Assembly (NCBI GenBank): GCA_052145255.1
Contig: JBKQOX010000026.1
Coordinates: 33,528 to 97,527 of the forward strand
DNA from: Terracidiphilus sp.
GTDB taxonomy: Bacteria > Acidobacteriota > Terriglobia > Terriglobales > Acidobacteriaceae
Direction of reading: 5' to 3'
DNA length: 64,000 nt
Below are positions 11,891 through 35,618 of this stretch, one piece after another. Each line of letters opens with the position of its first letter. The first letter of the stretch is position 1. Made by a program: the position numbers and the translations under genes. The notes under the pieces were generated by a model that searched no databases, was not told the origin of the DNA, and saw only the letters and a program-made list of their open reading frames with translations.

Positions 11891-11932
11891 CGCCCAAGCC
11901 GCCGCCCGCCGCGAACACTCCTTAGCTCTCCG
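11891..11932 (+). repeat. 42-bp direct repeat, copy 2
   Basis: CGCCCAAGCCGCCGCCCGCCGCGAACACTCCTTAGCTCTCCG; 41/42 identical to copy 1. Confidence 0.9.
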
Positions 11933-18870: not shown

Positions 18871-20430
18871 TCACTCGCCGTTTTGCGAATTCTGATTTGG
18901 GTGCACCACGAGGAAGCTCTCGCCACCGTTCGCCCAAACCAGAAGCAGGACGTCTTTCCCTACAGGCTCCGAGTGAAGCTGGTTCACGAAGCTGTCCGCA
19001 TCCTCGACGGGATGACGGTCGACTCCGAGAATCACATCGCCGGGTGTGAGACCCGCATCTTCAGCCGCGCTGCCCGGACGCACTGATTCGATCACCGCGC
19101 CCTTCACCTGATCGGGCACGTTGAACTGCTGGCGCAGATCGGGAGTCAGGTTGGCCACGGCCAGTCCAAGACGGCCGCGCTGCTGGCTGCCCTGTTCGCC
19201 GTTGCTCGCCTCTTCATTCGTGTTGTGGAACTCGCCCACTGTCACGTGCAGCGTTTGCGGCTTGCCGTCACGAAGAATGCCCAGTGTGATCGCGGTCCCT
19301 GGCGTCATCTCGCTCACCGTAACCTGCAGCATGCTGCCGTTCGGAATCCCCTTGCCGTCAACCTCGCGCAGCACGTCGCCGCTCTCTAAGCCAGCTTTGC
19401 TGGCCGGCGAGTCCGGTGTCACCTGGCTGACGATGGCGCCTGTCGCATCGGGCAGGTTGAAGAAGCTCGAGTTGTCGGGCGTCACATCGTTCATGCTGAT
19501 GCCCAGGTAGCCGTGGTGCACGCTGCCGTTCTTGATGATGGCCTGCGCCGTGGCCTGGGCGATTTGCGACGGAATCGCGAATCCCGCGCCGGCAAACGAT
19601 CCGCTGCCCGAGATGATGAAGGTGTTGATGCCAATGACTTCGCCGTAAGCATTCACCAGCGGCCCGCCGGAGTTACCGGGATTGATGGCCGCATCGGTCT
19701 GGATAAAGGCGCCCGGCTTGCGCGGATCGTCGCGGTAAGGATTCGGGCGATCGAGGCCGCTGATGATGCCGCGCGTCACGGTAAAGGGGAAGTTGCCGAA
19801 GGGGTTGCCGAAGGCCAGCACGGTCTCGCCCGGCTTGATTTTCGTCGAGTCGCCCCACGGCACGCTGGTCAGGTCGTGCGCGTCGATTTTGATCACCGCC
19901 AGGTCGTTGAGTTTGTCGACACCGATCAATTTCGCGGTGAAGACGCGTCGGTCATTCAATGTGACGCGAATCTGCGTCGCCCCGTCGACCACATGATCGT
20001 TGGTGACGATGTATCCATCTGACGTTAGAATCACGCCACTACCGATGCCATGTTCGAACTGGGGCTGCGGTTTCATCTGCTGGCCGCCGGGACCGAAGAA
20101 GAACTGACGAAAGCCGGGAGGCAAATCCTGCGGATTGATTCCGCCGGGTCCCTGCCCGCCGTTCTCGGAGTTCTGATCGTCCTCGGAAACGCGCGAAGTG
20201 ACGGCCACGTTGACGACTGCGGGCGTGACGCGCGCGGCAACGGCTTCCACCGCGTTATCGAGCGCGACCAGCGACGAGACGCTGCTCTCATCGAGCGGCC
20301 CGGCGACAGCGGCGTGCGCTCTGCTGTGATCGAAAAAGAACGCAAGCGAAAACAGAACGGTGGCGAGGATACCAGCGGGAACTGCGAGCTTCTTGACGAT
20401 TGCTACTAATGAATTAGTTGTCAAAGACAT
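18871..20430 (-). CDS. DegP/DegQ (HtrA, Do family) serine protease with two PDZ domains
   Basis: Start MSLTT at 20430 after GGAGA; GSGVIL, VTNDHV, DLAVIK, QTDAAINPGNSGGPL, two PDZ domains. Confidence 0.93.
   Translation of the reverse strand: MSLTTNSLVAIVKKLAVPAGILATVLFSLAFFFDHSRAHAAVAGPLDESSVSSLVALDNAVEAVAARVTPAVVNVAVTSRVSEDDQNSENGGQGPGGINPQDLPPGFRQFFFGPGGQQMKPQPQFEHGIGSGVILTSDGYIVTNDHVVDGATQIRVTLNDRRVFTAKLIGVDKLNDLAVIKIDAHDLTSVPWGDSTKIKPGETVLAFGNPFGNFPFTVTRGIISGLDRPNPYRDDPRKPGAFIQTDAAINPGNSGGPLVNAYGEVIGINTFIISGSGSFAGAGFAIPSQIAQATAQAIIKNGSVHHGYLGISMNDVTPDNSSFFNLPDATGAIVSQVTPDSPASKAGLESGDVLREVDGKGIPNGSMLQVTVSEMTPGTAITLGILRDGKPQTLHVTVGEFHNTNEEASNGEQGSQQRGRLGLAVANLTPDLRQQFNVPDQVKGAVIESVRPGSAAEDAGLTPGDVILGVDRHPVEDADSFVNQLHSEPVGKDVLLLVWANGGESFLVVHPNQNSQNGE
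20405..20418. promoter_or_regulatory. Putative BlaI-family operator inside the first codons of degP
   Basis: ACTAA-TGAA-TTAGT, matching the palindrome upstream of blaI. Confidence 0.55.
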
Positions 20431-20461
20431 TGCTTCATCTCCATGGGTGTGAATTGCATGT

Positions 20462-22165
20462 TTAGAGTTGGAAGAACAGCCAGCCGCCATCGAATGCAGA
20501 TGCGGTTGGCCGATGGGAATGTGAACCTGTTGTTCGCGCAGACTTAGTGTCCGTGGTCGCGCCCGTCGGAGATCCTGTCATGGTGTTTGCCGGATACACA
20601 AGCAGAATCAGGTGCGTGACGGAAATCTGCGCGACCGGGGACGTGTTGCGCTTGCTGGTTGCGTCGTCGCTTTGTATTTGCGCGTCAGCGCCGGTTTCAT
20701 AGTCGGCGACTTCTCTGGACGTTGTTGCAGAAGATTGCGGTGCAGACGTCTCCACTTCTTCCCAGGCTGTGAGAACAATAAATTCCTGACCTTGCGTGGA
20801 AACCGCCGCCGGCGTGGAGGCTGCTGCATTCACCATCACCTGGTGTGGCGTAGCCTTACGATCTGTCATCGCCGTCTCAGCTGTCTCGTTGCTGCGGGGT
20901 GACCGAGCAGCAACGGGCGGCCCTGCCGCGCTGCGCGTTGCAGGAACAATAGACTTCGTCTCAATTGCGCGGTAATCCCTGGAAGGATGGAATACTGCAT
21001 TGGCGCCCGTCGGGCCTGGCTCACTCATTCGATCATCGGAAATCCGCGCGAGACGCGGAGCATCGGTCTGCTGCGGCGCGAGATCGGCCATCTGCGCGTC
21101 GGGCTTCGGCGCGGCAACAAACGCGACCAACTGCGGGCTGCGCGACAGTTCAACCGCTCCAACAAGCAAGCCGCATCCAACCATACCGACCAGCGCCCCC
21201 GCCGCCAGCGGATGGAGCGCCCGCCTGCGCCGAAGGATGCTGTCGACGCGGTGAACCAGTTCCGGCCGGCGTTCGAATACGCCCAGCGAAAGCGCCTGCG
21301 CACGGCGCAAAAACTCCCGCCGCTCGAATTCGCGGCGTTGCAGTCCGCGCTCTGCAAGGGCAGTCAGGCAGGCCGCATAGGTGCGCGGAGCCTGCGTCCT
21401 CTGAACCACTCCTTCGTCGCAGGCCATCTCGCGCTCGCGGCACAGGCGCCGCTCCATCCACGCCAGCGCCGGATTCAATGGAAATAGCACGAGAGCAAGT
21501 TTCTGCAGCAGATTCGTCCAGTCATCACGCCGACGCAGATGTTCGGCTTCATGCAAAATCACTTGTTGAAGCTCGCCCGGAGTCAGCCGCGAATAGAGCC
21601 ACTCGGGAATGAGTATCCGCGGCGCAAAAAAGCCAATAACGCTCGGCCGGTCAAGGTCGGGCGTGGTGCAAATCCCGATGGGCCGCCCAGGCAATCCCGC
21701 AAGCAGCGAGTGAAGATTCCCGTCCATTTCGATAGGGGTTGCGCCGCGCCACAGTCTGCGCAGCCGCAACAAATGAAAAACCAGCTCTGCAGCACGAAGT
21801 GTTGAAGCAGCCAACCACAAAGCGGCGATGGCGAATCCCCATCGGCTGTCCAGCTGGAGCCAGGGCCTTGCTGTTACTCCACCGGCCTGCGTAGCGGCGA
21901 TCACAGTGCCGGAATGCTCGAGAAATGGCAAGAACGGCAACAGAGCCGCAACTGCAAATCCCGCTGCCCAAGCCGCAAAGCGATGCGCAGCGGAGATGCG
22001 GAGCACGAGTCGCAGGCAAAGGACCAACGCAAGCGCAACCAGCGCGTCCTGCCAAAGCGCCGCCACAGCCGCCGGTGCCGCAGCGTGCGCAAAACCAGCG
22101 AATGCCGCTCTCACCGATTCAGCGAGACCCGCCAAAACCGAATCCGCTATCTGCATCAAGGGCAT
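20462..22165 (-). CDS. BlaR1/MecR1-like M56 metallopeptidase without a penicillin-binding sensor domain
   Basis: TM helices, PSVIGFFAPRILIP, ILHEAEHLRRRDD, FPLNP, EMACDE; low-complexity Ala/Thr/Ser/Pro-rich C-terminus. Confidence 0.88.
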   Translation of the reverse strand: MPLMQIADSVLAGLAESVRAAFAGFAHAAAPAAVAALWQDALVALALVLCLRLVLRISAAHRFAAWAAGFAVAALLPFLPFLEHSGTVIAATQAGGVTARPWLQLDSRWGFAIAALWLAASTLRAAELVFHLLRLRRLWRGATPIEMDGNLHSLLAGLPGRPIGICTTPDLDRPSVIGFFAPRILIPEWLYSRLTPGELQQVILHEAEHLRRRDDWTNLLQKLALVLFPLNPALAWMERRLCREREMACDEGVVQRTQAPRTYAACLTALAERGLQRREFERREFLRRAQALSLGVFERRPELVHRVDSILRRRRALHPLAAGALVGMVGCGLLVGAVELSRSPQLVAFVAAPKPDAQMADLAPQQTDAPRLARISDDRMSEPGPTGANAVFHPSRDYRAIETKSIVPATRSAAGPPVAARSPRSNETAETAMTDRKATPHQVMVNAAASTPAAVSTQGQEFIVLTAWEEVETSAPQSSATTSREVADYETGADAQIQSDDATSKRNTSPVAQISVTHLILLVYPANTMTGSPTGATTDTKSARTTGSHSHRPTASAFDGGWLFFQL

Positions 22166-22167
22166 GA

Positions 22168-22599
22168 TTATCTCTCGCCTCGCGCCTTACCGGGCGCCGC
22201 GTTCCGGATCGCTTCTTTATCGGGCGACGCGCTGCGAATCGCGTCGCGCAGTCGGTCCAGCTCCTCGGTGGAGATTTCCTTATCGCCCAGCAGGCTTAAC
22301 AGCAGCTTCTCGCGCGAGTTGCCAAAGAAGCGATTCATCACGTTGCGCACCTCTGAGCGGCCCGCCTCGTTTTCTTTGACGCATGGCCAGTAAACAAAGG
22401 CCCGCCCTTCCTGGCGATGTTCGACGTAACCCTTTTGCTCCAGGATTCGGATGGTGGTGAGCACAGAATTGTAGGCCAGTTGTTCGCCTTCCGGCAGGGC
22501 TTCAACCAGGTCGGTAACGGCCGACTCGCCGCGCCGCCAGAGGATCTTCATCAGCCTCAGCTCGGCTTCGGTCAACGTATTGGATTTTCTTGGCGGCAT
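22168..22599 (-). CDS. BlaI/MecI/CopY family repressor
   Basis: LTEAELRLMKILW, LAYNSVLTTIRILEQKGYV, FFGNSREKLLLSLL. Confidence 0.93.
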   Translation of the reverse strand: MPPRKSNTLTEAELRLMKILWRRGESAVTDLVEALPEGEQLAYNSVLTTIRILEQKGYVEHRQEGRAFVYWPCVKENEAGRSEVRNVMNRFFGNSREKLLLSLLGDKEISTEELDRLRDAIRSASPDKEAIRNAAPGKARGER

Positions 22600-22923: not shown

Positions 22924-23907
22924 ATGAACACCCAGCTCAGGCCGATGACCCTTGGCGAGATTCTTGACCGGACCGCCGAACTCTACCGAACTCACTTCCT
23001 GCTTTTTGCCGGGATCTCTTCCATCTTCGCCGTGATCATGCTCGCCGTGCAGCTTTTGTATCTGCGCTCGCTCGTCCTGCTCGGATATCCCAACTTGATG
23101 GCGCATTGGCAATGGGGAACGGCCTCGGTCGCCATGGTTGAAGCACTCGTCGTCCTGATGCTGGCCGGGCTGTCGATCGCCGCCAACAATCGGGCAGTTG
23201 CGTGGGTGTACCTGGACAAGCCTGCGACGATTCGTGCCGCTGCCAAAAGCGTCGTGCCCCGCCTGCGAACCTATTTGTGGCTTATGACGATCACCGCATT
23301 CCGCGCGTGGGCGCCCTTCGCCGCGCTTTACGTTGCTTTCATTGGCATCGCATTTGCGGTCCTTCCTCACGGCTTGATCACGAATCCAACGGCGGTGCAG
23401 GGCGCGGCTCAGCAAATCCCTGGCGCCATCATGGCTGCGGGCATCGGCATGCTCGTTCTCATGCCGTTTTTTGCATTGGCTTTCGTGTATGGAGTGTGGA
23501 TGACGCTTCGCTATTCGCTCGCAGTGCCCGCTTGCGTCGTGGAAGATTTGCCGGCGACCCCTGCAATCAAGCGCAGCATTTCACTTAGCGAAGGCTCGCG
23601 CGGGCGGATCTTCGTCCTCGGCCTCCTGGTGTATGCGGTGCGTACGGTGCTGGGGATTCTGTTCGGTTTCCCCATGATCGCTCTTGCTTTAAAACATCCC
23701 GGCCAGCCGCTCCCTCTGCTCTGGATGGTTGTGGCTCAAATCGGCAGCTTCGTGACCAGCGCATTGATCGGCCCCATCTACTCCACCGGCCTCACGCTCT
23801 TTTATTACGACCAGCGCATTCGCAAGGAAGGCTTCGACATCGAGTGGATGATGCAGGCCGCGGGACTCTCACCGCAAACCGAGTTGCCGGCGCCGCAAAA
23901 TTCCTGA
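22924..23907 (+). CDS. Multi-TM membrane protein, paralogue 1 (MoxR-cluster associated)
   Basis: LRPMTLGEILDRTAELYR, several TMs, YYDQRIRKEGFDIEWMMQ. Confidence 0.85.
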   Translation: MNTQLRPMTLGEILDRTAELYRTHFLLFAGISSIFAVIMLAVQLLYLRSLVLLGYPNLMAHWQWGTASVAMVEALVVLMLAGLSIAANNRAVAWVYLDKPATIRAAAKSVVPRLRTYLWLMTITAFRAWAPFAALYVAFIGIAFAVLPHGLITNPTAVQGAAQQIPGAIMAAGIGMLVLMPFFALAFVYGVWMTLRYSLAVPACVVEDLPATPAIKRSISLSEGSRGRIFVLGLLVYAVRTVLGILFGFPMIALALKHPGQPLPLLWMVVAQIGSFVTSALIGPIYSTGLTLFYYDQRIRKEGFDIEWMMQAAGLSPQTELPAPQNS

Positions 23908-23923
23908 GCCAGCGAGGATTCTC

Positions 23924-24949
23924 ATGAGCGAGACATTTCGACCCTCTACACTCGGGGAGATTCTCGATCGCACGGCGCAGATTTATCGCCGCAACTTCTG
24001 GCTCTTTGCCGGCGTGGCGGCTTTGCCCATCGGCGCGATCTTCGCTCTCACGGCGATTGGAGGTGCTTTATTCGGGGCCGCAACAGTGGCATTCAGGGCC
24101 AGCAACCTGGCCAATCCTGCTGCCATCGCACTCGTCGTTCTGATCGTTTTGATCGCAGCGCCGGTCTACATTGCAGCGGCCGTTTTCTCCTCCGCAGGGC
24201 TCACAGAGGCGGCAGCGAGCACGAGTCGCGACGAAAAGATCACCATCCGCGGCGCGTTCAAGAAGGTGACGCCGCGGTTCTGGCGCTACCTGTGGCTCAT
24301 CATTCTGCAGGGGATTGTAGTGGGTCTGATCCCGGCGGCGATTGCGGGCGCCGTGATCGGAGTTCTGCTATTTGTTGGAACGCTTGCCGGAGCAGGCACC
24401 TCCACCGCCATCGCCGTGGGATTTCTCGTCTTTATCGTTGTGGTCGCGGCGGTGGTCGTCATCATCGAGCTTGTGTTGGGTTATTCGATCAGCCTCCCCG
24501 TGTGTGTCCTGGAGAAAAAGCCAGCGTGGGATTCGCTCAAGCGCGGATGGAGTTTAAGCAAGGGCACGCGCGGGCGCATCTTCGTCATGTTTCTGCTGGT
24601 CATGGCACTGGCCATGGCCGTGTCGATGATCTCGGCAATTCCATCCATGATCATCATCTTCACTTCCGCGGCCGGCGGATCTCAGCCCGCCACTGGATCG
24701 GTTGCATTTATCGTGGCTGAAATTACAAGAGCCGTCCTGGATCTCGTTCTTCAGGTCGCGCTCGCGCCCATCTCCGCGATTGCGCTTGTGCTCTTCTATT
24801 ACGACCAGCGCATCCGCAAGGAAGGTTTCGATATTGAGTGGATGATGCAGCAGGCCGGGCTTACGCCGACCGCATCCCAGGCGCCGACGGCGCCAGCCCT
24901 GGGTATTTCCGGGCCGGTTGCGCCCCCTGATACCGTGGAAGAACCATGA
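23924..24949 (+). CDS. Multi-TM membrane protein, paralogue 2
   Basis: FRPSTLGEILDRTAQIYR, YYDQRIRKEGFDIEWMMQ; same terminal motifs as the previous gene. Confidence 0.85.
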   Translation: MSETFRPSTLGEILDRTAQIYRRNFWLFAGVAALPIGAIFALTAIGGALFGAATVAFRASNLANPAAIALVVLIVLIAAPVYIAAAVFSSAGLTEAAASTSRDEKITIRGAFKKVTPRFWRYLWLIILQGIVVGLIPAAIAGAVIGVLLFVGTLAGAGTSTAIAVGFLVFIVVVAAVVVIIELVLGYSISLPVCVLEKKPAWDSLKRGWSLSKGTRGRIFVMFLLVMALAMAVSMISAIPSMIIIFTSAAGGSQPATGSVAFIVAEITRAVLDLVLQVALAPISAIALVLFYYDQRIRKEGFDIEWMMQQAGLTPTASQAPTAPALGISGPVAPPDTVEEP

Positions 24950-26064
24950 ATCTGGGGTGCCCGAGATCAGGTTGGCGCCACGCCGCAGCACGTTCGGTGG
25001 TAGCTCTCGCGCTGCTCGTCCCACTCGCTGCCGGGCTAATCTCTGCGCGCGCCCAGGAGCCTACTGCCGAACCCGGCTGGCGCAGTGCGACCGTCGCCGA
25101 ATACCAGCAGCACCTCAAGGATCTCGACGCGATTGTCGCCGCATGCCAGAAGCAGCGGTCCGGGGCGGCCGCGGCACAGTCCATTTTTCCGGCGTGCAAT
25201 CCGGCGCAAATCGGTCCCGATGATCGCGTCCAAGGTTTCGCCGCTGCGCCTTCGCAGACGCGCGAGGTGCGATACGACTGGCTGCGCTCCGTTCTCACGC
25301 GTGCCGCGAAAAAGGACGGTGCAACGCAGAAGACGATTTTCGGCGCAATTCCCCACCCCAACAACAAACCGGTCTCACTTGATTCGCTGCTGGCCGTATC
25401 GCGCCAGCGCCTTCAGGACGACGCAGCGCAAGCGGGAGCGCCACCTGCGTCGACTCCAAACTTCAGCGACGAGCGAAAATCCCTGAACACCATCCTCTCG
25501 CAACGCGCGTATCAAGGCGTCACGCAAGTGTCGACCATGGATCGCCTTCGCGAATGGTTTGACAACCTGCTCGACAGATTTTTCTCGGGGCTGGTGCGCT
25601 TTGGATCGCACGCGCCGTGGATCGTGTGGCTGCTGCGCATCCTGCTGCTCGTGGCCATTTGCACAGCGCTGGTCTGGTTTCTCCTGCGTATCGAGCGGCG
25701 CTCGCGTCTCCGCGTGGTTCCCGAAATCGAGCCCGCGCCTGGCGCGCCTTCTGCGCGCGAATGGCAACTGTGGCTCCGCGATGCTCAAGATATGGCTGCG
25801 CGTGGCCAGTGGCGCGAGGCTATTCACTTCATTTATTGGGCAGCGATCGCGCGTTTGGAGTCGAAGCGAATGTGGCCGGCTGATCGCGCACGCACTCCAC
25901 GCGAGTATCTCGCCCTGCTGGCTGGAACCGACCCGCGCAAAACCAATCTCACAGCCCTCACGCGGAGTTTCGAGCGCACCTGGTACGGCGGCCGCACGGC
26001 CCAGGCTTCCGACTTCAACGCCGCTCTGGAACAGGCCGCGGCACTGGGGGTCGCGACGGAATGA
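24946..26064 (+). CDS. DUF4129 domain protein
   Basis: Signal peptide, one TM, C-terminal WREAIHFIYWAAIARLE...RARTPREY...LTRSFERTWYG. Confidence 0.85.
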   Translation: MNLGCPRSGWRHAAARSVVALALLVPLAAGLISARAQEPTAEPGWRSATVAEYQQHLKDLDAIVAACQKQRSGAAAAQSIFPACNPAQIGPDDRVQGFAAAPSQTREVRYDWLRSVLTRAAKKDGATQKTIFGAIPHPNNKPVSLDSLLAVSRQRLQDDAAQAGAPPASTPNFSDERKSLNTILSQRAYQGVTQVSTMDRLREWFDNLLDRFFSGLVRFGSHAPWIVWLLRILLLVAICTALVWFLLRIERRSRLRVVPEIEPAPGAPSAREWQLWLRDAQDMAARGQWREAIHFIYWAAIARLESKRMWPADRARTPREYLALLAGTDPRKTNLTALTRSFERTWYGGRTAQASDFNAALEQAAALGVATE

Positions 26065-27254
26065 AGCTCTTCCCCTCACTCGACGCGAAGGACCGCAGGC
26101 TGCTCACCGGTTGCATGATCGCGGTAATCGTTCTCGCATTTGTGACCGCATTCCTGTCGCGCAACGAAAACGACGACAACAATACCGTGCCAAGCTCCTA
26201 CCTGACTGGCAAGCACGGCGCGCGCGCAGCCTACGAATTGCTGCAGGCAAGCGGATACAACGTGCAGCGATGGGAGCAACCGTTGAGCGATCTGGCCGAA
26301 CGCGCCGACGGCCAGACGGTCGTCATCTTCGCCGAGCCTGACCAGGGTGACGTCGCGGCGGAAGATCTGAAGGCGGTGCGGGACATCGTCGCCAGGGGCG
26401 GCCGCATCTTGGTCACGGGATGGTCGGGCGGAATGATTGCGCCCGACGGCAACGCCCAGCCGCCGACGCAGTTTCAAGTCGCGTGCAAGCTTACTCCGCA
26501 GGGACTCGATCCGCTTGCCGGCGCCGGCGAAGTGTGGATGGTTCCTGAAGCCAGTTGGGGATTCGACCACCCGCTCGATCGGGTGCAATACAACTGCGCG
26601 GGCACTCCGGCAGTCGTGGAGTACTCCGAAGGCAAAGGCGGGGTGATTTGGTGGGCAAGCTCCACACCCATTGAAAACAGCACCATCAGCCGCGCCGACA
26701 ACCTGAACCTCTTTCTGAACGCGCTTGGCGCCCGCGAAGAGCACAGGATCTACTGGGATGAGTCGCTGCACGGCGAAACTCGCACGGAGTGGTTCTACGC
26801 CAGCGGACCGGCAATCTGGCTTTTGCGAGGTGCGCTTGTCGCGATCGGGCTGCTGATTCTCTTCAGCTTCAGCCGGCGCCGCGGGCCGGTGCGCGACCTG
26901 CCGGCCCCGGTGCGCGCTTCTCCAGTCGAATTCCTTGAGGCGCTGGGCTCGCTCTACGCGGAGGCGCGGGCCTCAGCCACTGCGGTTGAGCTCGCTTTTG
27001 AGCGCTTCCGCCGCCGCATGGGCGATCTGTGCGGACTAAAGGGCGCAAAGATGAGTGCGGAGGAGTTGGCGAAGGCGTTGCGCCGACGCTTCCCGCAGGC
27101 CTCACCGGAGCTGGAGAAAGATCTGGCCGATTGCGAGGTGGCCGCGACGAACGATAAGCTGCCGCCCAAAAGCGCGCTGGCGCTGGTGCAGGCGCTGAAC
27201 CGGCATAGCGAGTTGCTGACCGCCGCGGCGCGTGCGGGCCCGGCGCATCGATAA
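26061..27254 (+). CDS. DUF4350 domain protein
   Basis: N-terminal TM, PSSY..GKHGARAAYELL, IYWDESLHG, second TM, RRRGPVR, VEFLEALGSLY. Confidence 0.85.
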   Translation: MKLFPSLDAKDRRLLTGCMIAVIVLAFVTAFLSRNENDDNNTVPSSYLTGKHGARAAYELLQASGYNVQRWEQPLSDLAERADGQTVVIFAEPDQGDVAAEDLKAVRDIVARGGRILVTGWSGGMIAPDGNAQPPTQFQVACKLTPQGLDPLAGAGEVWMVPEASWGFDHPLDRVQYNCAGTPAVVEYSEGKGGVIWWASSTPIENSTISRADNLNLFLNALGAREEHRIYWDESLHGETRTEWFYASGPAIWLLRGALVAIGLLILFSFSRRRGPVRDLPAPVRASPVEFLEALGSLYAEARASATAVELAFERFRRRMGDLCGLKGAKMSAEELAKALRRRFPQASPELEKDLADCEVAATNDKLPPKSALALVQALNRHSELLTAAARAGPAHR

Positions 27255-27323
27255 AGGTGAATCGGGGAAAATGGAACGTGCCCGAAAGATCAAAAGATCG
27301 AAGCAGAAAGCAAGGAGACGGGA

Positions 27324-28325
27324 ATGACCGAGGAAACGAATCTGGGACAGGGCTCGCAATTGACGAGCGCGGCGCTGCCGGCGACGCAGCAGCTTCTCGC
27401 CGCCTCGCGCTCGGAACTGGGGCGCGTGATCGCGGGACAAAGCGAAGTGATCGGCGAGGTTCTGGTCGCTGTATTGACGCAGGGTCACGCGCTGCTTGAA
27501 GGCGTGCCGGGCATTGCGAAAACGCTCATCGTCAAGTCGGTCGGCCGCCTGCTTGGCCTCGGCTTCCAGCGCGTGCAGGGCACGCCGGACCTGATGCCGG
27601 CCGACATTCTGGGCACCACAATGTTTCGGCCGGGCACCGACACCTTCACCTTCCACGCCGGCCCGGTCTTCACCGACCTGCTCCTGGTGGACGAGATCAA
27701 CCGAATGCCTCCGCGCACGCAGGCCGCGCTGCTTGAATGTATGGAAGAGCGGCAAGTGACAAGCGACGGCGTGCAGCGCCCACTTCCGCCATGGTTCACC
27801 GTCTTCGCCACTGAAAATCCCATCGACTTTGAAGGCACCTATCCACTGCCCGAGGCGCAGCTTGATCGCTTTCTGCTCAAAATCAAAGTGGGCTACCCGC
27901 CTCCGGACGACGAACGGCTGATGCTCGAGCGCCATCACGGCGCGGCCCAGGGAAACCTGCTCGAAAATGCGAAGATTCAGCCGCTTCCTGCCCAGCTTCT
28001 CGCTTCCGCGCGCGATGAGATTCGCGCCATCCGTGTGGAGAACGATCTTTACGGCTACATTCTCGATCTCGTTCGCCGCACGCGCGAGTGGCCCATGCTG
28101 GCGCTCGGAGCCAGCCCCCGTGCCGCGATCTGCCTGCTGCGCGTGGCGCAGGCATTCGCGGCCTTTGAAGACCGCGATTACATCATTCCCGACGACGTGA
28201 AGCGCGCCGTTCTGCCTGTCCTGCGCCATCGCATTATCCTCAAGCCGGAGGCGGAGCTTGAGGGCTTCGATCCAGACCGAGTCCTCAACGACGTTGTAGC
28301 CGCGGTTGCGGTGCCGCGAGGATGA
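27324..28325 (+). CDS. MoxR family AAA+ ATPase
   Basis: LLEGVPGIAKT, DLMPADILG, LLVDEINRMPPRTQAALLECMEERQVT, ATENPIDFEGTYPLPEAQLDRF, GASPRA. Confidence 0.95.
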   Translation: MTEETNLGQGSQLTSAALPATQQLLAASRSELGRVIAGQSEVIGEVLVAVLTQGHALLEGVPGIAKTLIVKSVGRLLGLGFQRVQGTPDLMPADILGTTMFRPGTDTFTFHAGPVFTDLLLVDEINRMPPRTQAALLECMEERQVTSDGVQRPLPPWFTVFATENPIDFEGTYPLPEAQLDRFLLKIKVGYPPPDDERLMLERHHGAAQGNLLENAKIQPLPAQLLASARDEIRAIRVENDLYGYILDLVRRTREWPMLALGASPRAAICLLRVAQAFAAFEDRDYIIPDDVKRAVLPVLRHRIILKPEAELEGFDPDRVLNDVVAAVAVPRG

Positions 28326-29722
28326 TTTCATCGTCCCTCCATCCCGAGCCGGTTCGCGCCGCTTGCAAGCCGCGCGGCCGCTTTGCGTTTGGCCTAACAT
28401 CGCGCACGATCTGGCTGCTTGTCGCTGGCCTTCTGCTCGCGCTGCCGGGATTCTTCCGGCCTACGTGGGGATACGGCATGCTCGTCTGGGATGCGCTGGT
28501 GCTGCTCGCGGTTCTTCTCGACGGATTGCGATTGCCGCTCGCGCACGAGATCACGATCGAGCGCTCCTGGAGCAACGTGCCTTCGCTCGACAGTGAAACC
28601 GAAATCCAACTTGCCGTCGAGCACAGCGCAGAGACAATACTCGAGTGCCACCTGGTTGATGACTTGCCCGACGCATTGGTCGCCGCGCCCGCCACGCGCT
28701 TCCTGCGCGCATTTCCCCGCGTGCGCGCCGCGCTCCGTTACAAAATCAGGCCGCGCGAGCGCGGCGATGTTCGCGCCGGCCAAGTCTACGTTCGCTATGC
28801 TTCGCCGCTCGGGCTGGTGGAGCGCTGGGCCATGGCCCCGCTCGAGCAGCCGGTGCGCGTCTATCCGGCGCTGCGCCAGGGCGAGGATCAGGAGATCTTT
28901 CTCGCTCGCGGCCGCCAGATCGATCTTCAGCTACGGCGCGCGCGCGAGCGCGGACTGGGCCGCGACTTCGAGAGCCTCCGCGAATATCTCGAAGGCGACG
29001 ATCTGCGCGATGTCTGCTGGACAGCGACCGCACGCCGCGGCCAGTTGATCACACGCCGCTACCAGACCGAGCGCAGCCAGGCAGTATGGATCGTACTCGA
29101 CGCCGGCAGATTGCTGCGCGGCAGAATCCTCAGCGACGACGAAACGGAACGCCGTGGCCATTCCAAACTCGACTACGCGTGCTCCACCGCCGTGGCGCTT
29201 GCGCAACTGGCGCTTTTCTCCGGCGATCGCGTAGGCCTCCTTGTCTATGGACAGCATGTGCAGCAGCGAGTGCTTCCCGGCCGCGGCCACGCGCATCTGC
29301 GACAAATTGTTGAAGCGCTCGCGCAGGCGCGCGCCGAATTGAGCGAAGCTGATCATCTGCGCGCAACAGCAACGCTGAATCGCTGGCAGCCGCGCCGCGC
29401 GCTCATTCTCTGGATCACGGATCTCGCAGAAACCGCCATGCGCCCTGAAGTCATCGACGGCGCCATGCAGTTGCTGCATCGCCACGTGCTGCTTTTTGTC
29501 GCCATGGCCCAGCCCGACGTCGTTGCCATCGCCAACGCGCGACCGAAGAATGTCGAAGAAATGTTCCGCGCATCAGCAGCTCAAGAATTGACCACGCGGC
29601 GCGAATTGCTGCTCGCGCGCCTGCGCGACCAGGGCGCGCTCACCCTCGATCTCGATCCCGCGCTGCTCACATCGGCCGTGCTGAATCAGTATCTGAAGGT
29701 GAAAGAGCGGGCTATGGTGTAA
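28322..29722 (+). CDS. DUF58 domain protein (VWA-related MoxR partner) with N-terminal TMs
   Basis: DFESLREYLEGDDLRDVCWTATARRG, VLDAGR, GDRVGL; ATGA overlap with moxR. Confidence 0.9.
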   Translation: MISSSLHPEPVRAACKPRGRFAFGLTSRTIWLLVAGLLLALPGFFRPTWGYGMLVWDALVLLAVLLDGLRLPLAHEITIERSWSNVPSLDSETEIQLAVEHSAETILECHLVDDLPDALVAAPATRFLRAFPRVRAALRYKIRPRERGDVRAGQVYVRYASPLGLVERWAMAPLEQPVRVYPALRQGEDQEIFLARGRQIDLQLRRARERGLGRDFESLREYLEGDDLRDVCWTATARRGQLITRRYQTERSQAVWIVLDAGRLLRGRILSDDETERRGHSKLDYACSTAVALAQLALFSGDRVGLLVYGQHVQQRVLPGRGHAHLRQIVEALAQARAELSEADHLRATATLNRWQPRRALILWITDLAETAMRPEVIDGAMQLLHRHVLLFVAMAQPDVVAIANARPKNVEEMFRASAAQELTTRRELLLARLRDQGALTLDLDPALLTSAVLNQYLKVKERAMV

Positions 29723-29800
29723 GCGCGATTTTCCGATCCAAACTGTCTGAAATGAGGAAGATCCGAGCCTTTCCGCGCGGGTGCATAATTGCGCTAATCA

Positions 29801-29938
29801 TTGCTCATTCTAAAGGGGTTATTGGCCATCAATTCGACGTAATTTGCGGTCATTTTTCGATGTTTCTACGATCTGTTTGCTGATTCTAAACGAGTTATAT
29901 GGCGAAAAACAGGCGAAACATCCAAAATTTTTTCTTAA
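29801..29938 (-). repeat. AT-rich dispersed element, copy B (inverted relative to copy A)
   Basis: Cores at 29879-29898 and 29803-29822, also 76 bp apart. Confidence 0.85.
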
Positions 29939-30249
29939 TTTATTTTTTGCACTCGAGAAAGACAGCGGAGTTAGCTGGGCGAGCGGAGCTTGCTCGCGCC
30001 CCGGCGCGACTGCCGATTCGGAATGTTTCGGATGAATCCCCATACAAGATCAAGTGTAGAGATTTGGCGGAAATAATCGGCAAACTTCGCGAATTTTTTT
30101 TGCGCGTGTTTTCAGCGGATTGCGAAGGAGATCGCGAAGAGAGGCCTTGACAGCCGGGGAACCTGATCTTTCTGGATGGCGGGGCCGGACTGCGAACGGC
30201 TGAATTACATCTACTGATGGGAATGGCAGTTCATTGACCCAAGTTGAAA

Positions 30250-30684
30250 TCAATGTTGATTGCTTGTCTGTTCAATTCCATATTGTATTGCTGCTTTAAG
30301 TACTTCGATTTTGATATCTGCGAGTGTTTTGAATTTGATGCAATACCCCGTGACGCTTGCTTTGCCGAGTTCCTTCCCAAATGTCCGGGCCAGGTACTTC
30401 TTGTCATTCACTCCCATAATGTAGACCGAAATGCCTGTTGTATTCGCACTGATACCGATTTGATAGAACTCCCTGGTTTTTCCATTGGCGGATTGAAGGT
30501 TTTGAGATCCATATCCAATGTTTGGGTTGGAAACGATTTTTCCTTTCTCGTCTTTTCCATCCAAGAACCACAATTTACATGTTGGCATCAACGCCAAAAT
30601 CATGGCTTGCAAATGCTGCATTTCGCTACGTTTTGGTTCCGGTTGAGTGGCAATATACTCCTTGATTTGTTTCTGCAAGTTCAT
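30250..30684 (-). CDS. DUF1801 family protein, AT-rich
   Basis: KLWFLDGKDEKGKIVSNPNIGYG, FYQIGISANTTGISVY, GKASVTGYCIKFK; about 40-42% GC in two 60-nt lines counted; AAGGAG SD. Confidence 0.85.
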   Translation of the reverse strand: MNLQKQIKEYIATQPEPKRSEMQHLQAMILALMPTCKLWFLDGKDEKGKIVSNPNIGYGSQNLQSANGKTREFYQIGISANTTGISVYIMGVNDKKYLARTFGKELGKASVTGYCIKFKTLADIKIEVLKAAIQYGIEQTSNQH

Positions 30685-30932
30685 GGATATCTCCTTGGCT
30701 TAGCGGTACCAATCCAGTGCTGCGGGAACCATCGGATTAGAGTCGGCTTGCCAGGCTCCGTAAATCGATCAGAATGATACCGGATTCTGTTTACTCATTG
30801 CCAGCGCTCTGAAATCACGGCTGACGACTTCAGGCGAGGCGCTCATCCAGCCTGCGGCCTTTTCTCAATGCAGGGTCGGCACCGACAAACGCCTCAGCGT
30901 CCTAGAATCGAGTTGTGCCTGGATTGTGGCAA

Positions 30933-31646
30933 ATGCGCGCGCTTCCCTTCCTCGTCGTCGCCTGGGCTATCGCTTTAGGCATGACGGCGGCGGCGCAGGC
31001 TCAGAACGAGGCTCAGCGTCCATCGTTCGAAATCCTGACGCATCGCATGGATGTCGACGTGGATGGAGCTCCGAACGCCTACGGACCGACGGACAAGGAG
31101 ACGCTCGACGTCCTTCTGGATGCGCACTACCTTAATCGAGCTGATGAGCCGATCGTCGGTTATTTGACGGACGAGCACAGACGCCCCATTCTGCAAGGGC
31201 CAAACGATCCCTTCCCGGGCTACTACATTTCTCAGACCGCCTTTGCCGACATTGAGAATCAAAATGAACGTGACCCTCGGCGCTACGTGGACGCCCGCAA
31301 CATTAATTACGTGGTTCGCGGCAACAAGGCCCGGCGGCACGGCGTGAAGGTGGGCGACTTTGTGTCGGTCTATTCGAAACGCACGCAGAAGAGCGTGTTT
31401 GCGATTGTCGGAGACACGGGCAATCCCACAGGCAACGAAGGCTCGCTTCACTTATTGCAGGATCTGGGATATCCGTTTCACGACGGCAAGAACGAGTCGG
31501 TTGAAAAACGCGAGATCGTGATCCGGTTCTACCCAAACTCCAACCCGGAGCAACGATTCTTCTTTACTCAGGCAGAACTGGACGATGCAGCGACAAAGTT
31601 TGGGTTGAGCCGGGATTTCTCAGCCTCTCGTGTAGCGAATCGATGA
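30933..31646 (+). CDS. Secreted GH75 (fungal-type chitosanase)-like protein
   Basis: Signal peptide; MDVDVDGAPNAY, YVDARNINYVV, FAIVGDTG...NEGS. Confidence 0.7.
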   Translation: MRALPFLVVAWAIALGMTAAAQAQNEAQRPSFEILTHRMDVDVDGAPNAYGPTDKETLDVLLDAHYLNRADEPIVGYLTDEHRRPILQGPNDPFPGYYISQTAFADIENQNERDPRRYVDARNINYVVRGNKARRHGVKVGDFVSVYSKRTQKSVFAIVGDTGNPTGNEGSLHLLQDLGYPFHDGKNESVEKREIVIRFYPNSNPEQRFFFTQAELDDAATKFGLSRDFSASRVANR

Positions 31647-31730
31647 AGCGCACCGACGCTACCGGTTATGGGTGGCGGCGAAGTTTTTAGAGCTGGTTGC
31701 ATAAATCCCCTAAGCCGGCTTCAAAGACTT

Positions 31731-31790
31731 CCTCAGGGGCTAAAGCCCCGCTGTTTATGCGCCTTATGCGGCACGACTGAAGTCGTGCCC
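31731..31790. repeat. Pair of REP-like palindromes
   Basis: GGGGCTAAAGCCCC (31736-31749) and GGCACGACTGAAGTCGTGCC (31770-31789). Confidence 0.75.
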
Positions 31791-31830
31791 TGATACAAAG
31801 CCATTTATGAAACTGATTGTAGAAGCAACC

Positions 31831-31878
31831 GCAGATCCTTCGTCCCCGTCGCTACGCTCGGGGCCCTCAGGATGACAG
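31831..31878. repeat. REP/MITE-like element of the GCAGATCCTTCG...CTCAGGATGACA type
   Basis: GCAGATCCTTCG, internal CCCCG...CGGGG hairpin, CTCAGGATGACA. Confidence 0.65.
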
Positions 31879-31911
31879 GGCAATAGGGAAGGCGCCAGCG
31901 CGGCAGTGGAT

Positions 31912-32898
31912 CTAGGGCGCGATGTCAGGCGTGGGCGTGGGCGCGGGCTTTAACGGCCGGAACAGCCACACCAGCAGCAACGTAAACAGCAGCCCGCCCA
32001 CCGTGAATTTGAGCGGGATGGGCGCGTTTGACGGCGAGAAAAATCCTTCGAGCGATCCGGCGATGATGAGCAGCGGAATGACGCCGGAGATGAGCCGCGT
32101 GGCTTCAACGCCGGCCAGCGCAATGGAGTCGCGCCGGCGATAGAGCCCGGGAAATAAAACTCCATGAGCGAGACGCAATCCGGCCCCGCCGGAAAGAACG
32201 ATAGATGGCAACTCAAGCGACCCGTGCGGCGCGACGAAACTCCACAGGTCAACCGACATTCCGTGTTGCGCGCAGGCCACCCCGACGACGCCGAGCAAGA
32301 GCCCGTTAAAGAACATGGACCACACCGGCCCCAGGCCGAAGACGATGCCGCCGGCAAAGGCGACAAAGCAGACGGTCAGATTGTTGGTCATGATCCGGCT
32401 GGCTTCCTTGGGCGCCACTGCAACAATCGACTTCGTCCACATCTCGTGGCGATCAATGGTCTCGACCATCGCCGGCCCCAGCATGTGGCGCATGAACTGC
32501 GGACGCGCGAGCGTGAGAACCGACCCGAGCAATGCGCCGGCCAGCGTGAGCACCAACGCCAGCAGCACATAGCGAATCTGGCGCTGCACGGTGGCCGGAT
32601 ACTCGTCGCGCAGGAAATAGAAAATCTTGAGGAAGCCTTTGCGGCGGCTGGAATAGATGATATGGTGGGCGCGAGCCAATAACTGGTTGACGTGCTCGGC
32701 ATAAGCGCGCGCCGTCGAGTCCTGGCGCAGCGTGGACAAGTCGCTCGCCGCCTGGCGATAGAGCAGCGCGGTTTCGCGCAGCTCTTCGCGGGAAAGCTGG
32801 CGCACGCCGCCTGTCGTGGCCTCGCCCAGCAGCGCGGCAAGGCGGTCCCAGTAGGGGCGGCGTTTCGCGAGCCACTGATTGGAGAGAATAGTCGCCAT
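31912..32898 (-). CDS. SpoIIM (DUF95) family membrane protein
   Basis: LYRQAASDLS, IMTNNLTVCFVAF, FNGLLLG, VAPHGSLELPSI, IIAGSLEGFFSP. Confidence 0.9.
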   Translation of the reverse strand: MATILSNQWLAKRRPYWDRLAALLGEATTGGVRQLSREELRETALLYRQAASDLSTLRQDSTARAYAEHVNQLLARAHHIIYSSRRKGFLKIFYFLRDEYPATVQRQIRYVLLALVLTLAGALLGSVLTLARPQFMRHMLGPAMVETIDRHEMWTKSIVAVAPKEASRIMTNNLTVCFVAFAGGIVFGLGPVWSMFFNGLLLGVVGVACAQHGMSVDLWSFVAPHGSLELPSIVLSGGAGLRLAHGVLFPGLYRRRDSIALAGVEATRLISGVIPLLIIAGSLEGFFSPSNAPIPLKFTVGGLLFTLLLVWLFRPLKPAPTPTPDIAP

Positions 32899-33757
32899 GG
32901 GGCCGATTGGAGATCAGCTTAACATTGACACCCCGGAGCTCGTGGCGATCGAGTTGCCGCTGGCCGGAATCGGCAGCCGCTTTATTGCGATTCTCGTCGA
33001 CTCTCTCATTTGGGGATTCATCTTTTTCATTCTTGGCCTTCTGGCCGCCATCATTCTTCCGGCGCTGCATTTTTTCGGCGGCGTTTCAGCCGACTGGGCC
33101 GTCGGCATCATCGGCCTTATCGTCTTCCTTCTGCTCTGGGGCTATTTCGCGCTCTTTGAGGCCTTCGGCAACGGCCGCACGCCGGGCAAGCGAGTGGCTC
33201 ATGTTCGCGTGATTCACCAGTCAGGACGCGGCATTAATTTTGTTGAGGCCCTGGCGCGCAACCTGGTGCGGTTCGTGGACTTTCTGCCATTCTTCTTCGC
33301 GGTGGGCGTTGTCGCCATGTTCCTCAGCAAGCGCAGTCAACGTCTCGGCGACATGGTTGCGGGGACGCTGGTGGTTCGCGACCGCGAGGTCGATTCGCCG
33401 AATTGGGGCGAGACCAGCGGGCGAACGATTACGGCGCCCACGCTGGTGACGGAGTCGGCGATCGCTGCGCCAGGTTCGGCAGCAACGAATGCCGGCCCGT
33501 GGGGTGGTCCGCCGCATCTGCGCGTTGTGCTGCCGGCGCCGGCGCTGGCGAAGTTGTCTGCATCCGATCTCGAAGTGCTTGAGGGATTTTTCTCGCGGCG
33601 CCTGGATATGGATCTGACTACGCGCGCTGCTTTGGCCAGCCGCATTGCCACGGCTCTCTGCGCCAAGTCGGGCCTGGTGATTCCGCCCGACACGAGCGTG
33701 GAAACTTTTCTCGAGGCAGTGGCTCACCAGTTCCGCGAGCAGGCGCGGATGAGCTGA
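32897..33757 (+). CDS. RDD family membrane protein
   Basis: IDTPELVAIELPLAGIGSRFIAILVD, YFALFEAFGNGRTPGKR, LARNLVRFVD, QRLGDMVAGTLVV. Confidence 0.92.
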   Translation: MGPIGDQLNIDTPELVAIELPLAGIGSRFIAILVDSLIWGFIFFILGLLAAIILPALHFFGGVSADWAVGIIGLIVFLLLWGYFALFEAFGNGRTPGKRVAHVRVIHQSGRGINFVEALARNLVRFVDFLPFFFAVGVVAMFLSKRSQRLGDMVAGTLVVRDREVDSPNWGETSGRTITAPTLVTESAIAAPGSAATNAGPWGGPPHLRVVLPAPALAKLSASDLEVLEGFFSRRLDMDLTTRAALASRIATALCAKSGLVIPPDTSVETFLEAVAHQFREQARMS

Positions 33758-33843: not shown

Positions 33844-35385
33844 CTAGGGCGTGAACTCCCAAAGGTCATTGAGCCTCACCCAATCTCCTGAGACGGAGTC
33901 GTCGGTTTCGTAGCCTCCGAAGATCCAGACATTCCCAGAGGAATCTTTCCAGGTCATGCTGCTGTTCCGTCCCCCAGGAATGTTGCCTGAGGCTCCAGTC
34001 CCCTCTGTTCCGTAGGTCGCGGCCGCCGCGCCGTTGGTCCCGCCTGCATCCGATCCGCCCATCCAGGTCCATTCGCCCGAGGTTGGGCTATACCTCCACA
34101 GGTCGTTGTAGCTTTCGTCCCCGTTATTCGCGAAGACCCCGCCGCCGAAGAGCCACAGATCTCCCGATGAGTCTGTCCAGACTGAGCTGCCCGAGCGCGC
34201 CCCAGGCACGTCGCCGGCCGCCGCGGTTCCCTCCGTCCCGTATGTTCCCAGTGCGTTTGCGATGTTCGACCCGCTGGCCCACGTCCATTGGCCGCTTGTG
34301 GGACTGTATTTCCAAAGGTCATTGAGCAGCTCCTCGTCGCACTGGCCGGTCCCAACCGAATCGCAGCCGTTCCCGCCAAAGAGCCACAGATTGCCGGATG
34401 AGTCGATCCAGCCCATCGCACCGCTTCGTCCGCCGGGCATATTGCCGGCCGCCGCCGTCCCCTCGGTTCCGTAGACTCCGTTTTGCCGCGCCACATCAGG
34501 CCCGCTCATCCATGCCCATTGGCTGGTGCCTGGGCTGAACTTCCAAAGATCGCCGAGGGGTCCACTTTTGCCTGTCGAGTCGTAACCGTACCCGCCGAAG
34601 AGCCAGAAATTGCCCGAGGCGTCGGTCCATGTGACCGACGAATCTCTTGCACCGGGAATATTTCCAGCAGCCGCCTTTCCAAGGGTCCCGTAGGTCCCCT
34701 CCTGGCCGGCGAAATTCGAGCCGACCACCCACTCCCAATATCCCGTCGTCGGAGAGAACTCCCAAAGGTCGTTGAGGTAGCCCTCGTCGCCCGCCGAGTC
34801 GTAACCCTGCCCGCCGAAGAGCCAGAAATTGCCCGAAGCGTCCTTCCAGGTGGCAGACGAGTCTCGTGATCCAGGCAGGTTACCGGGGGCTGCCGTCCCC
34901 AGGCCGTAAATCCCTGCTTTGTTGTCGGCGGTTGATGATCCACTCATCCAGATCCATTCGCCTTGGCTGGGGCTGTACATCCAAAGGTCGTTGAGGTATC
35001 CCCAGCCGGTCGTTAAGCTGGCCGACAACTCACCCGCACCGCCGAAGAGCCAGAAGCGGCCGGAGGCATCGGTCCAGCCCGCAGACGCAATCCGTGCTCC
35101 GGGCACGTTGGCGGCGGCTGGCGTCCCGAGGAATCCGTATGTGCCCAGTTGGTCGGCGGTGCTGCTGCCGTCGACCCAGGTCCATGTGCCGTAGGTGAAG
35201 GGGGTTGAGCCGCCTCCACCCGATCCACCCGAACCACCAGAACCGCCGGATCCTCCGGTTGACACGGTCCCGCTCGACCCGCCGCAACCAGCGAGAGCGC
35301 CAACAAGGCTGACGCACGCCATCAGGGCGCAGAATCGCACGCCTGAAACCATCCAATCACCGCACTTAACCACACTTTTCTTCAT
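33844..35385 (-). CDS. Kelch/galactose-oxidase-type beta-propeller lipoprotein with six repeats
   Basis: Lipobox LAGC, Gly/Ser linker, six W(L/I)FGG...NDLW-type repeats; start may be 35385 or the later MVSG. Confidence 0.85.
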   Translation of the reverse strand: MKKSVVKCGDWMVSGVRFCALMACVSLVGALAGCGGSSGTVSTGGSGGSGGSGGSGGGGSTPFTYGTWTWVDGSSTADQLGTYGFLGTPAAANVPGARIASAGWTDASGRFWLFGGAGELSASLTTGWGYLNDLWMYSPSQGEWIWMSGSSTADNKAGIYGLGTAAPGNLPGSRDSSATWKDASGNFWLFGGQGYDSAGDEGYLNDLWEFSPTTGYWEWVVGSNFAGQEGTYGTLGKAAAGNIPGARDSSVTWTDASGNFWLFGGYGYDSTGKSGPLGDLWKFSPGTSQWAWMSGPDVARQNGVYGTEGTAAAGNMPGGRSGAMGWIDSSGNLWLFGGNGCDSVGTGQCDEELLNDLWKYSPTSGQWTWASGSNIANALGTYGTEGTAAAGDVPGARSGSSVWTDSSGDLWLFGGGVFANNGDESYNDLWRYSPTSGEWTWMGGSDAGGTNGAAAATYGTEGTGASGNIPGGRNSSMTWKDSSGNVWIFGGYETDDSVSGDWVRLNDLWEFTP

Positions 35386-35618
35386 GAACAACCCCCTGCC
35401 TTGGTTTGGGCGATCCGTTCGAAGATGAGCTGATGAAGCTTGGGGAGGCTCGCCTGAATCGAAACGAATCGGTGCCTACGCTGCTCGAACAGTCGGCAGG
35501 CCGGTCGACCGAGTGATCCTGTTGATGCCCCCCAGACTCACTCGACCGGTCAGATTGCCTGCCGTTCTCTGTGAGCTTTATCGATGAGGAGCTGCAGAGG
35601 GTAGTCTCAACATGCCTC

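Follow-up and report, generated by a model that had tools for sequence, protein, structure and literature searches.

The DNA analysed here (the window, meaning the whole stretch of 64,000 nucleotides) lies on contig JBKQOX010000026.1 of a Terracidiphilus-like member of the Acidobacteriaceae from peat soil and carries, at positions 22924-33757, a cluster of eight genes for a MoxR AAA+ ATPase, a long DUF58 protein and several membrane proteins. For family assignment, Pfam scores were compared with each family's own cut-off. On the plus strand, the first gene encodes the transmembrane (TM) protein TM1 (22924-23907, 327 amino acids), a six-helix inner-membrane protein of the PF10110/DUF975 group, and the second its tandem paralogue TM2 (23924-24949, 341 amino acids; PF10110 31.9 bits, cut-off 29.6). 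These are followed, also on the plus strand, by genes for a DUF4129 protein (24946-26064, 372 amino acids; 42.6 bits, cut-off 24.8), a DUF4350 protein (26061-27254, 397 amino acids; 56.9 bits, cut-off 30.4), the MoxR ATPase (27324-28325; AAA_3 190 bits, cut-off 27; AAA_lid_2 86 bits) and the DUF58 protein (28322-29722, 466 amino acids; 84 bits, cut-off 23.4). Beyond an unstranded insertion zone (29723-31911), which lies between DUF58 and SpoIIM and outside the system, are the genes for a polytopic membrane protein of the SpoIIM (DUF95) family (31912-32898, minus strand, 328 amino acids; 124 bits, cut-off 26.9) and an RDD-family membrane protein (plus strand, 32897, or 32879 from an alternative TTG, to 33757; 79.5 bits, cut-off 24.1). 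All eight genes were found as open reading frames where a first-pass annotation of the window, made from the sequence alone, had placed them.

The six-gene set is translationally coupled. The ATGA-type overlaps that the first-pass annotation had reported were found at three junctions (TM2/DUF4129, DUF4129/DUF4350 and MoxR/DUF58), and spacers of 16 and 69 nt separate TM1 from TM2 and DUF4350 from MoxR, respectively. The SpoIIM gene converges on this operon, and the RDD gene diverges from SpoIIM, their start codons sharing the bases CATG. For RDD, the ATG at 32897 is a more probable start than the TTG at 32879: nearly all relatives shown retain that methionine, and its codon shares CATG with the SpoIIM ATG. 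A scan of the locus for promoters and terminators gave counts no higher than those of shuffled controls. The SpoIIM protein begins with a helical domain of about 105 residues that is predicted to be cytoplasmic, and the RDD protein ends in a soluble domain of about 120 residues.

The core of this cluster was found in Acidobacteriota, Alpha- and Gammaproteobacteria, Bacteroidota and Actinomycetota; phyla other than that of the window were reached with the DUF58 protein as query. With the DUF4350 protein, 212 cluster representatives matched over the full length at E<1e-30 in a representative search, a 13-sequence DUF4350 alignment used as query for related loci retrieved Acidobacteriaceae only, a profile search of a 5.8-billion-protein set returned close relatives only, and tblastn against plasmids gave no match. 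In plasmid II of Paracoccus aminovorans and in pRL11 of Rhizobium leguminosarum, the cluster consists of DUF805, DUF4129-like, DUF4350-like, MoxR, DUF58, SpoIIM and RDD genes; in Catenovulum adriaticum, it reads RDD, SpoIIM, a hypothetical protein, DUF4350, MoxR and DUF58. Neighbouring cluster genes overlap or abut in these three annotated records. The record of Prevotella sp. oral taxon 299 also carries the cluster core, and the locus of Nocardia farcinica encodes a PF10110-like protein (our own hidden Markov model, E 2e-7), DUF4129 (Pfam, 1.4e-11), MoxR, a long DUF58, RDD and SpoIIM. Across the five phyla, SpoIIM is co-directional or overlapping with DUF58, and in the other lineages RDD is co-directional with SpoIIM and overlaps it where annotated.

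Parts of this neighbourhood had already been described. Makarova et al. (2015) reported a neighbourhood of DUF4350, MoxR and von Willebrand factor A (vWA) genes in archaea and pointed out that SpoIIM homologues of bacteria lie next to vWA and COG0714 genes (PMC5898192). In Mycobacterium chelonae, orthologues of Rv3689 and Rv3691-Rv3695 are tabulated with matching family names under neighbouring locus tags, and this block drops by a log2 fold change of about 6 to 9, along with glpF and glpK a few locus tags away (PMC8191103). The co-regulation could as well be a regional effect, and it was counted as evidence of adjacency only. The first-pass annotation had called the system uncharacterised, and this stands in that no function was found in the literature searched; the neighbourhood itself is not new, being present in PMC5898192 and PMC8191103. 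All six core families are encoded in the window locus by Pfam, and there is little doubt that the locus belongs, as an intact and unremarkable copy, to a widespread DUF4129/DUF4350/MoxR/long DUF58/SpoIIM/RDD cluster of the mycobacterial Rv3689-Rv3695 type.

The cluster was then followed through the family and the phylum. The order TM(n), DUF4129, DUF4350, MoxR, DUF58 is retained in 80 related Acidobacteriaceae loci wherever the contig reaches far enough. SpoIIM lies close downstream in 52 of the 80, with RDD beside it in nearly all of these. In an 81-genome sample of the phylum, a long-type DUF58 occurs within 5 kb of a DUF4350 match in about 12 genomes; 20 regions around DUF4350 matches were fetched across the phylum, and 9 contain MoxR and a long DUF58. 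SpoIIM adjoins MoxR/long DUF58 in all 9 loci, RDD is present in 7, and the genes are co-directional in 5. Three genomes that are each 100% complete, one from the same genus (G032) and two from the same family (G048 and G062), were found to be without AAA_3 MoxR, DUF58, DUF4129, SpoIIM and an orthologous DUF4350, and two others (G000 and G075) carry all five in one locus. The cluster genes are thus kept or lost as a set. The first-pass annotation had treated them as one unit and had named a lack of co-occurrence across genomes as the outcome that would speak against it; they do co-occur, being co-located in five phyla and all-or-none in complete genomes of the family.

The arrangement in the window itself, in which SpoIIM and RDD lie 2.2 kb away on their own transcripts, could be read as two unrelated units, the operon on the one hand and SpoIIM/RDD on the other, or the whole cluster could be a mobile MoxR-vWA ternary system that serves defence or conflict. 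However, in more than 12 close relatives SpoIIM lies within about 30 bp of DUF58 (3-30 bp after it), the two are linked in five phyla, and SpoIIM is lost along with the remaining genes. Because relatives carry both genes 3-30 bp after DUF58, SpoIIM and RDD are true members of the system despite the gap. The DUF58-SpoIIM distance in relatives ranges from an apparent 34-bp frame overlap to 6.6 kb; direct adjacency is the ancestral state, and the junction is a hotspot of insertion.

The gap at 29723-31911 has a low G+C content (0.53) and contains dispersed repeats and cargo genes. The repeats, at 29801-29950, 30046-30122 and 31688-31813, comprise an AT-rich element of about 145 bp (at least 20 genome copies, 72-81% identity), an element of about 60 bp and a G+C-rich hairpin element that is REP-like (repetitive extragenic palindromic; about 10 copies). 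One cargo gene (30250-30684, minus strand) encodes a DUF1801 protein; by BLAST it is unrelated to the DUF1801 cassette found elsewhere in the window (11326-11932). The other (30915-31646, plus strand) encodes an exported 243-residue protein with the stretch DVDVDGAPNAYGP and no Pfam family, and was seen at the same insertion site in a few of the closest relatives (loci L023, L024, L027, L028, L067 and L068).

The features that might suggest defence are a weak bpMoxR match of the MoxR protein (31 bits), one weak PADLOC match of the RDD protein (PD-T4-6) and a Kelch beta-propeller gene (33844-35391, minus strand) between RDD and ssb. Against these, AAA_3 scores 190 bits where bpMoxR scores 31, no PADLOC match was obtained for 7 of the 8 proteins, and the chromosomal position of the cluster is stable across Terracidiphilus-like genomes. 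None of the 80 related loci contains an equivalent of the Kelch gene, RDD being followed there by ssb as the next gene recognised; its presence here reflects a local insertion, and it is no partner of the MoxR system. Taken together, a pair of unrelated units or a defence system appears very improbable.

The MoxR protein has intact Walker A (GVPGIAKT) and Walker B (LLLVDEINR) motifs and matches PDB entry 2r44 at E 3e-72. Its AAA_3 and AAA_lid_2 domains, its Walker motifs and the adjoining vWA-type gene place it in the MRP/AAA_3 subfamily, and it is the single classical MoxR of the genome by phmmer and AAA_3 family search. The DUF58 protein, also the only one in the genome, begins with a two-helix membrane hairpin (helices within 23-66), which is followed by a vWA-like domain predicted to be cytoplasmic. 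A cytoplasmic MoxR with DUF58 as its membrane-tethered vWA-type adaptor, as the first-pass annotation had proposed, agrees with these features.

The metal ion-dependent adhesion site (MIDAS) of this DUF58 is degenerate. A functional MIDAS has DxSxS at the end of the first strand; in the window protein, the position reads D259-A-G-R-L, in line with the DAGR noted at first pass. Among the cluster DUF58 orthologues, D and R are each present in 78 of 79, the serines of DxSxS being replaced by G or S and a hydrophobic residue, and the site is also degenerate in the cluster-type DUF58 of Paracoccus, Rhizobium, Catenovulum, Prevotella and Nocardia (DSGRV in Nocardia farcinica). Four short DUF58 proteins (about 300 residues) from the same phylum retain the motif, as DASAS, DASGS, DFSGS and DASRS. 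The window protein fits the cluster form, which has about 440-480 residues, an N-terminal hairpin and D-x-[GS]-[RKH]-hydrophobic at the site. Since the site is degenerate in cluster-type DUF58 of five phyla, we regard its loss as a hallmark of this subfamily and no local oddity. Given the loss of the metal site, the vWA-like domain probably acts as a metal-independent protein-protein adaptor.

Topology, that of DUF58 (N-terminus inside) included, was derived from hydropathy and from K/R counts flanking the helices. The DUF4129 protein has a signal/anchor helix, a helical domain of about 190 residues that is predicted to be periplasmic and has a Cys pair conserved in the family, a second membrane helix at about 224-254, and then the DUF4129 helical bundle (297-362), predicted to be cytoplasmic; its AlphaFold2 model has a mean predicted local distance difference test (pLDDT) score of 78.5. 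TgpA, which is encoded on one transcript with MoxR and DUF58, has its periplasmic part at residues 180-544 and its DUF4129 domain beyond the last helix (PMC3507681). The flank C-terminal to the second helix of the window protein contains 4 K/R in 15 residues (RRSRLR); because of this flank, and because the domain occupies the same position as in TgpA, a cytoplasmic DUF4129 is predicted here as well.

The DUF4350 protein has an N-terminal anchor with its N-terminus inside, a GldG-like flavodoxin-type domain (49-220) that is predicted to be periplasmic and ends in a conserved WDEsLHG, a membrane helix (252-270), and a conserved K/R-rich tail of about 125 residues (SRRxGP...R..P.EF), predicted to be cytoplasmic. 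The tail was considered as a second DUF4129 domain, with which it has an R-x-(S/T)-P-x-E-(F/Y) motif in common, and this was rejected at an hhalign probability of 0.4%. The periplasmic DUF4350 and DUF4129 domains of the first-pass annotation are therefore kept in part: the DUF4350 domain and the N-terminal part of about 190 residues of the DUF4129 protein are predicted to be periplasmic, but the DUF4129 domain itself is not.

No match to Transglut_core (PF01841) or TgpA_N (PF11992) was found by Pfam in any of the eight cluster proteins, and Foldseek of the DUF4129 model returned no papain or transglutaminase fold, the best PDB matches being HEPN-like four-helix bundles that were not significant (E 0.2-0.8). 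The transglutaminase that had been reported as missing is thus absent both in sequence and in predicted fold. The genome has a single DUF4129 match, the one in the cluster, and therefore lacks TgpA. A genome of the same class (G014) served as a positive control. Its MoxR and DUF58 are accompanied by a TgpA in which TgpA_N, Transglut_core and DUF4129 are all found (TgpA scores of 112 and 132 bits), and no SpoIIM match exceeds the family cut-off; its locus (L115, C44:184500-195500) contains MoxR, DUF58, a 282-codon open reading frame, an inserted MutY-like gene and then TgpA. This transglutaminase variant bears out the contrast with the TgpA operon drawn in the first-pass annotation. The window nevertheless shares with TgpA a DUF4129 domain C-terminal to the last membrane helix, in an operon with MoxR and DUF58. 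Because MoxR, DUF58 and DUF4129 are common to both variants, we infer that DUF4129 may be the cytoplasmic contact for the MoxR/DUF58 pair.

TM1 and TM2 are full-length paralogues (37% identity, E 2e-47). Both carry RPxTLGEILDRTA and YYDQRIRKEGFDIEWMMQ, the two motifs given for them at first pass. The family falls within the PF10110/DUF975/DUF7544/DUF7847 group, with 61 of 72 members matching PF10110. Of the two, TM2 is the faster-evolving protein, and its Pro/Ala-rich tail is disordered. Six membrane helices are seen in the AlphaFold2 model of TM1 (pLDDT 88.3; predicted TM-score, pTM, 0.84). There are three conserved stretches, namely the N- and C-terminal helices and the loop that joins helices 4 and 5, and all three lie on the K/R-rich side, which is predicted from the model to be cytoplasmic.

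The first-pass annotation had further proposed that the two TM proteins form a heterodimeric membrane core. In a tree of 57 family members, TM1 and TM2 form separate clades (support 99/97 and 96/95), and one subgroup has two more paralogue clades. Close relatives carry 1 to 4 copies; a single copy is found in the family's next genus and in more distant classes. Lineages with TM2 only (L048, L053, L058 and L074) or TM1 only (L071 and L072) branch from within groups that have both, which means that loss of either one is possible. In Rhizobium and Paracoccus, DUF805 proteins occupy the upstream membrane-protein position. Variable copy number, secondary loss and the presence of other proteins in other lineages mean that an obligate heterodimeric core is not supported, and the duplication represents a tandem expansion specific to this lineage. 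The polytopic partner appears to be the part of the system that varies from lineage to lineage.

Several variants of this upstream part were observed. In a Terracidiphilus subgroup (L086 at 4573-8835, also L077, L087, L089, L093 and L100), three to four tandem PF10110-like paralogues precede the DUF4129 gene, and SpoIIM and RDD are not found within 10 kb downstream. The genome of the window also has a third, unlinked PF10110-like paralogue (G000:C41:88234-89247, 338 amino acids, N-terminal GQILDR), which sits beside a gene for a 505-residue exported protein, with no MoxR nearby. In a locus from a distant acidobacterial class (L015), the cluster begins with an extra RDD protein bearing a GYF domain (5467-6243), and the DUF4129 protein (7675-9633) has a fused six-helix N-terminal membrane domain. 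This fused domain was considered as a PF10110 relative, which would have indicated TM/DUF4129 contact by fusion, and was rejected, hhalign giving a probability of 0.2% and no homology.

The predicted fold of TM1 raises a further reading, in which the PF10110-like protein, whose predicted fold resembles choline-transporter-like CTL/SLC44 proteins, and/or RDD moves a small molecule or lipid head group and is gated or assembled by MoxR/DUF58. The Foldseek top matches of TM1 are yeast Pns1 (9f63; probability 1.00, TM-score 0.51) and human CTL1 (9qu3; 0.99, 0.44), and PF10110 is named for the membrane domain of glycerophosphodiester phosphodiesterases. However, these matches are not significant (E 0.1-0.2, root-mean-square deviation 8-9 Å), the PF10110-like protein lies outside the conserved core, and no conserved substrate-binding protein or metabolic gene is nearby. 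A regulated transporter is therefore held to be quite improbable.

The explanation that we prefer is that the locus is an ordinary copy of the cluster that works by MoxR/DUF58-driven remodelling of an inner-membrane complex, to which we assign a probability of roughly 0.6. An envelope-related role is considered the most likely one for the cluster. In the mechanism as we would draw it, the cluster proteins would form one inner-membrane complex, and a MoxR hexamer in the cytoplasm would be held at the membrane by the two-helix hairpin of DUF58. ATP hydrolysis would act through the cytoplasmic parts of the partners to assemble or remodel the complex; the parts concerned would be the DUF4129 helical bundle, the DUF4350 protein's tail and, in the polytopic proteins, the conserved helices and loop. 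This remodelling would set the state of the periplasmic GldG-like DUF4350 domain and of the helical domain of the DUF4129 protein, and the upstream polytopic proteins would be clients or specificity subunits and not part of the core. Stated in this detail, the mechanism has somewhat less than an even chance of being right. A broader proposal, that the core is an unrecognised class of AAA+-driven inner-membrane machine in which the DUF4129 bundle docks MoxR/DUF58, with the same docking reused by TgpA and interchangeable polytopic proteins acting as clients or specificity subunits, is put forward as tentative and rather unlikely. If it were true, the tandem expansion in Terracidiphilus-like genomes would represent client diversification.

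The same variation in copy number and family of the upstream polytopic proteins might also be expected of clients in membrane-proximal extraction or quality control, in which MoxR would unfold membrane or membrane-bound clients recruited by DUF58 and an unlinked protease would degrade them. In Terracidiphilus-like genomes, the cluster lies beside a BlaI/M56/DegP operon (18871-22599, minus strand), which is divergent from it, and Zhang and Aravind (2012) proposed such a model for the sister operon of MoxR, vWA and transglutaminase-like (TGL) genes (PMC3495828). However, no cluster protein has a peptidase domain, either by sequence or by predicted fold. The DegP neighbourhood is moreover local: it is retained in most of the closest relatives, is gone in L064, L066, L075, L077 and beyond, and was not seen in other phyla. 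Classical MoxR ATPases are not known to thread substrates, which also counts against extraction. This alternative is accordingly considered unlikely.

An export function was weighed on similar grounds. Here, the DUF4350 domain and its membrane partners would constitute an export or anchoring complex whose assembly is under MoxR-vWA control. Makarova et al. predicted a secretion or membrane-remodelling complex for the archaeal arCOG01314 neighbourhoods, and the resemblance between DUF4350 and GldG, the occurrence of DUF4350 in operons with MoxR and vWA genes and the action of SpoIIM family members as membrane scaffolds are consistent with such a role (PMC5898192), as is a faint ABC_transp_aux match of the Catenovulum DUF4350 protein. 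SpoIIM family members are also reported from circular-bacteriocin clusters. On the other side, the bacterial cluster has no conserved candidate for a secreted cargo and no conserved S-layer or Ig-domain protein, ABC ATPase or outer-membrane component, and the sole nearby exported protein (30915-31646) sits in the variable insertion. Secretion or surface assembly thus remains an improbable explanation of the cluster.

Several observations count against the preferred explanation. No paper with an experimentally assigned function or phenotype for it was found in the literature searched. The cluster is missing from complete genomes of the same genus, and the system is therefore accessory and dispensable. 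In some Acidobacteriota (G016 and G050), the membrane genes and MoxR-DUF58 lie on separate contigs, and the relatives L086-L101 have neither SpoIIM nor RDD within 10 kb; tight linkage is therefore not universal. In addition, domain sharing with TgpA is the only pointer to the cytoplasmic part that MoxR/DUF58 may touch.

For a bacterial gene set to which the searched literature was not found to assign a function, the cluster is comparatively widespread. It ranges from soil Acidobacteriota to rhizobial megaplasmids, oral Prevotella, Nocardia and mycobacteria, and with so wide a distribution any functional assignment would carry over to many organisms. The Terracidiphilus copy is no more testable than the copies in culturable, genetically tractable bacteria. 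Among other things, the comparison of these copies separates a six-family core from a variable polytopic partner.

Compared with known systems, the locus shares with Bat (Bacteroides aerotolerance)-type operons a classical AAA_3 MoxR followed by DUF58. The short DUF58 proteins of about 300 residues, the sampled ones being taken as that type, keep DxSxS, whereas the window DUF58 is long and has no MIDAS. Bat operons also encode vWA+TM and TPR proteins, and by Pfam no BatA/BatB-like vWA+TM or TPR domains are present in the window locus.

The MoxR-DUF58-TgpA operon of Pseudomonas aeruginosa (PA2875-PA2874-PA2873) likewise co-encodes a membrane protein that ends in DUF4129 after its last helix (PMC3507681). 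TgpA carries a polytopic TgpA_N and a periplasmic transglutaminase core, and the window cluster has DUF4350, SpoIIM and RDD instead. In archaea, the DUF4350 family arCOG01314 is similarly membrane-anchored, with an outward-facing flavodoxin-like domain, and is encoded with a COG0714 MoxR and a vWA protein; those neighbourhoods add S-layer-like and Ig-domain proteins, and their vWA protein is predicted to be secreted (PMC5898192). The DUF58 of the window cluster, by contrast, is predicted to sit in the cytoplasm, tethered to the membrane, and is accompanied by DUF4129, SpoIIM, RDD and the PF10110-like proteins.

The counterpart named above for the whole locus is the mycobacterial Rv3689-Rv3695 cluster (moxR2 = Rv3692), with its orthologues in M. 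chelonae and M. abscessus, which shares the membrane protein, DUF4350, MoxR, DUF58, SpoIIM and RDD. As a lead only, a pull-down with the divisome-associated protein Rv0954 recovered Rv3694c and Rv3695 (PMC8093794). The membrane protein is single-copy in mycobacteria and a tandem pair in the window, and SpoIIM and RDD, which are directly adjacent there, are set apart in the window by the 2.2 kb insertion. The Terracidiphilus copy thus adds no new kind of system, and its local features are the tandem expansion of the membrane partner and the insertion that splits off SpoIIM/RDD.

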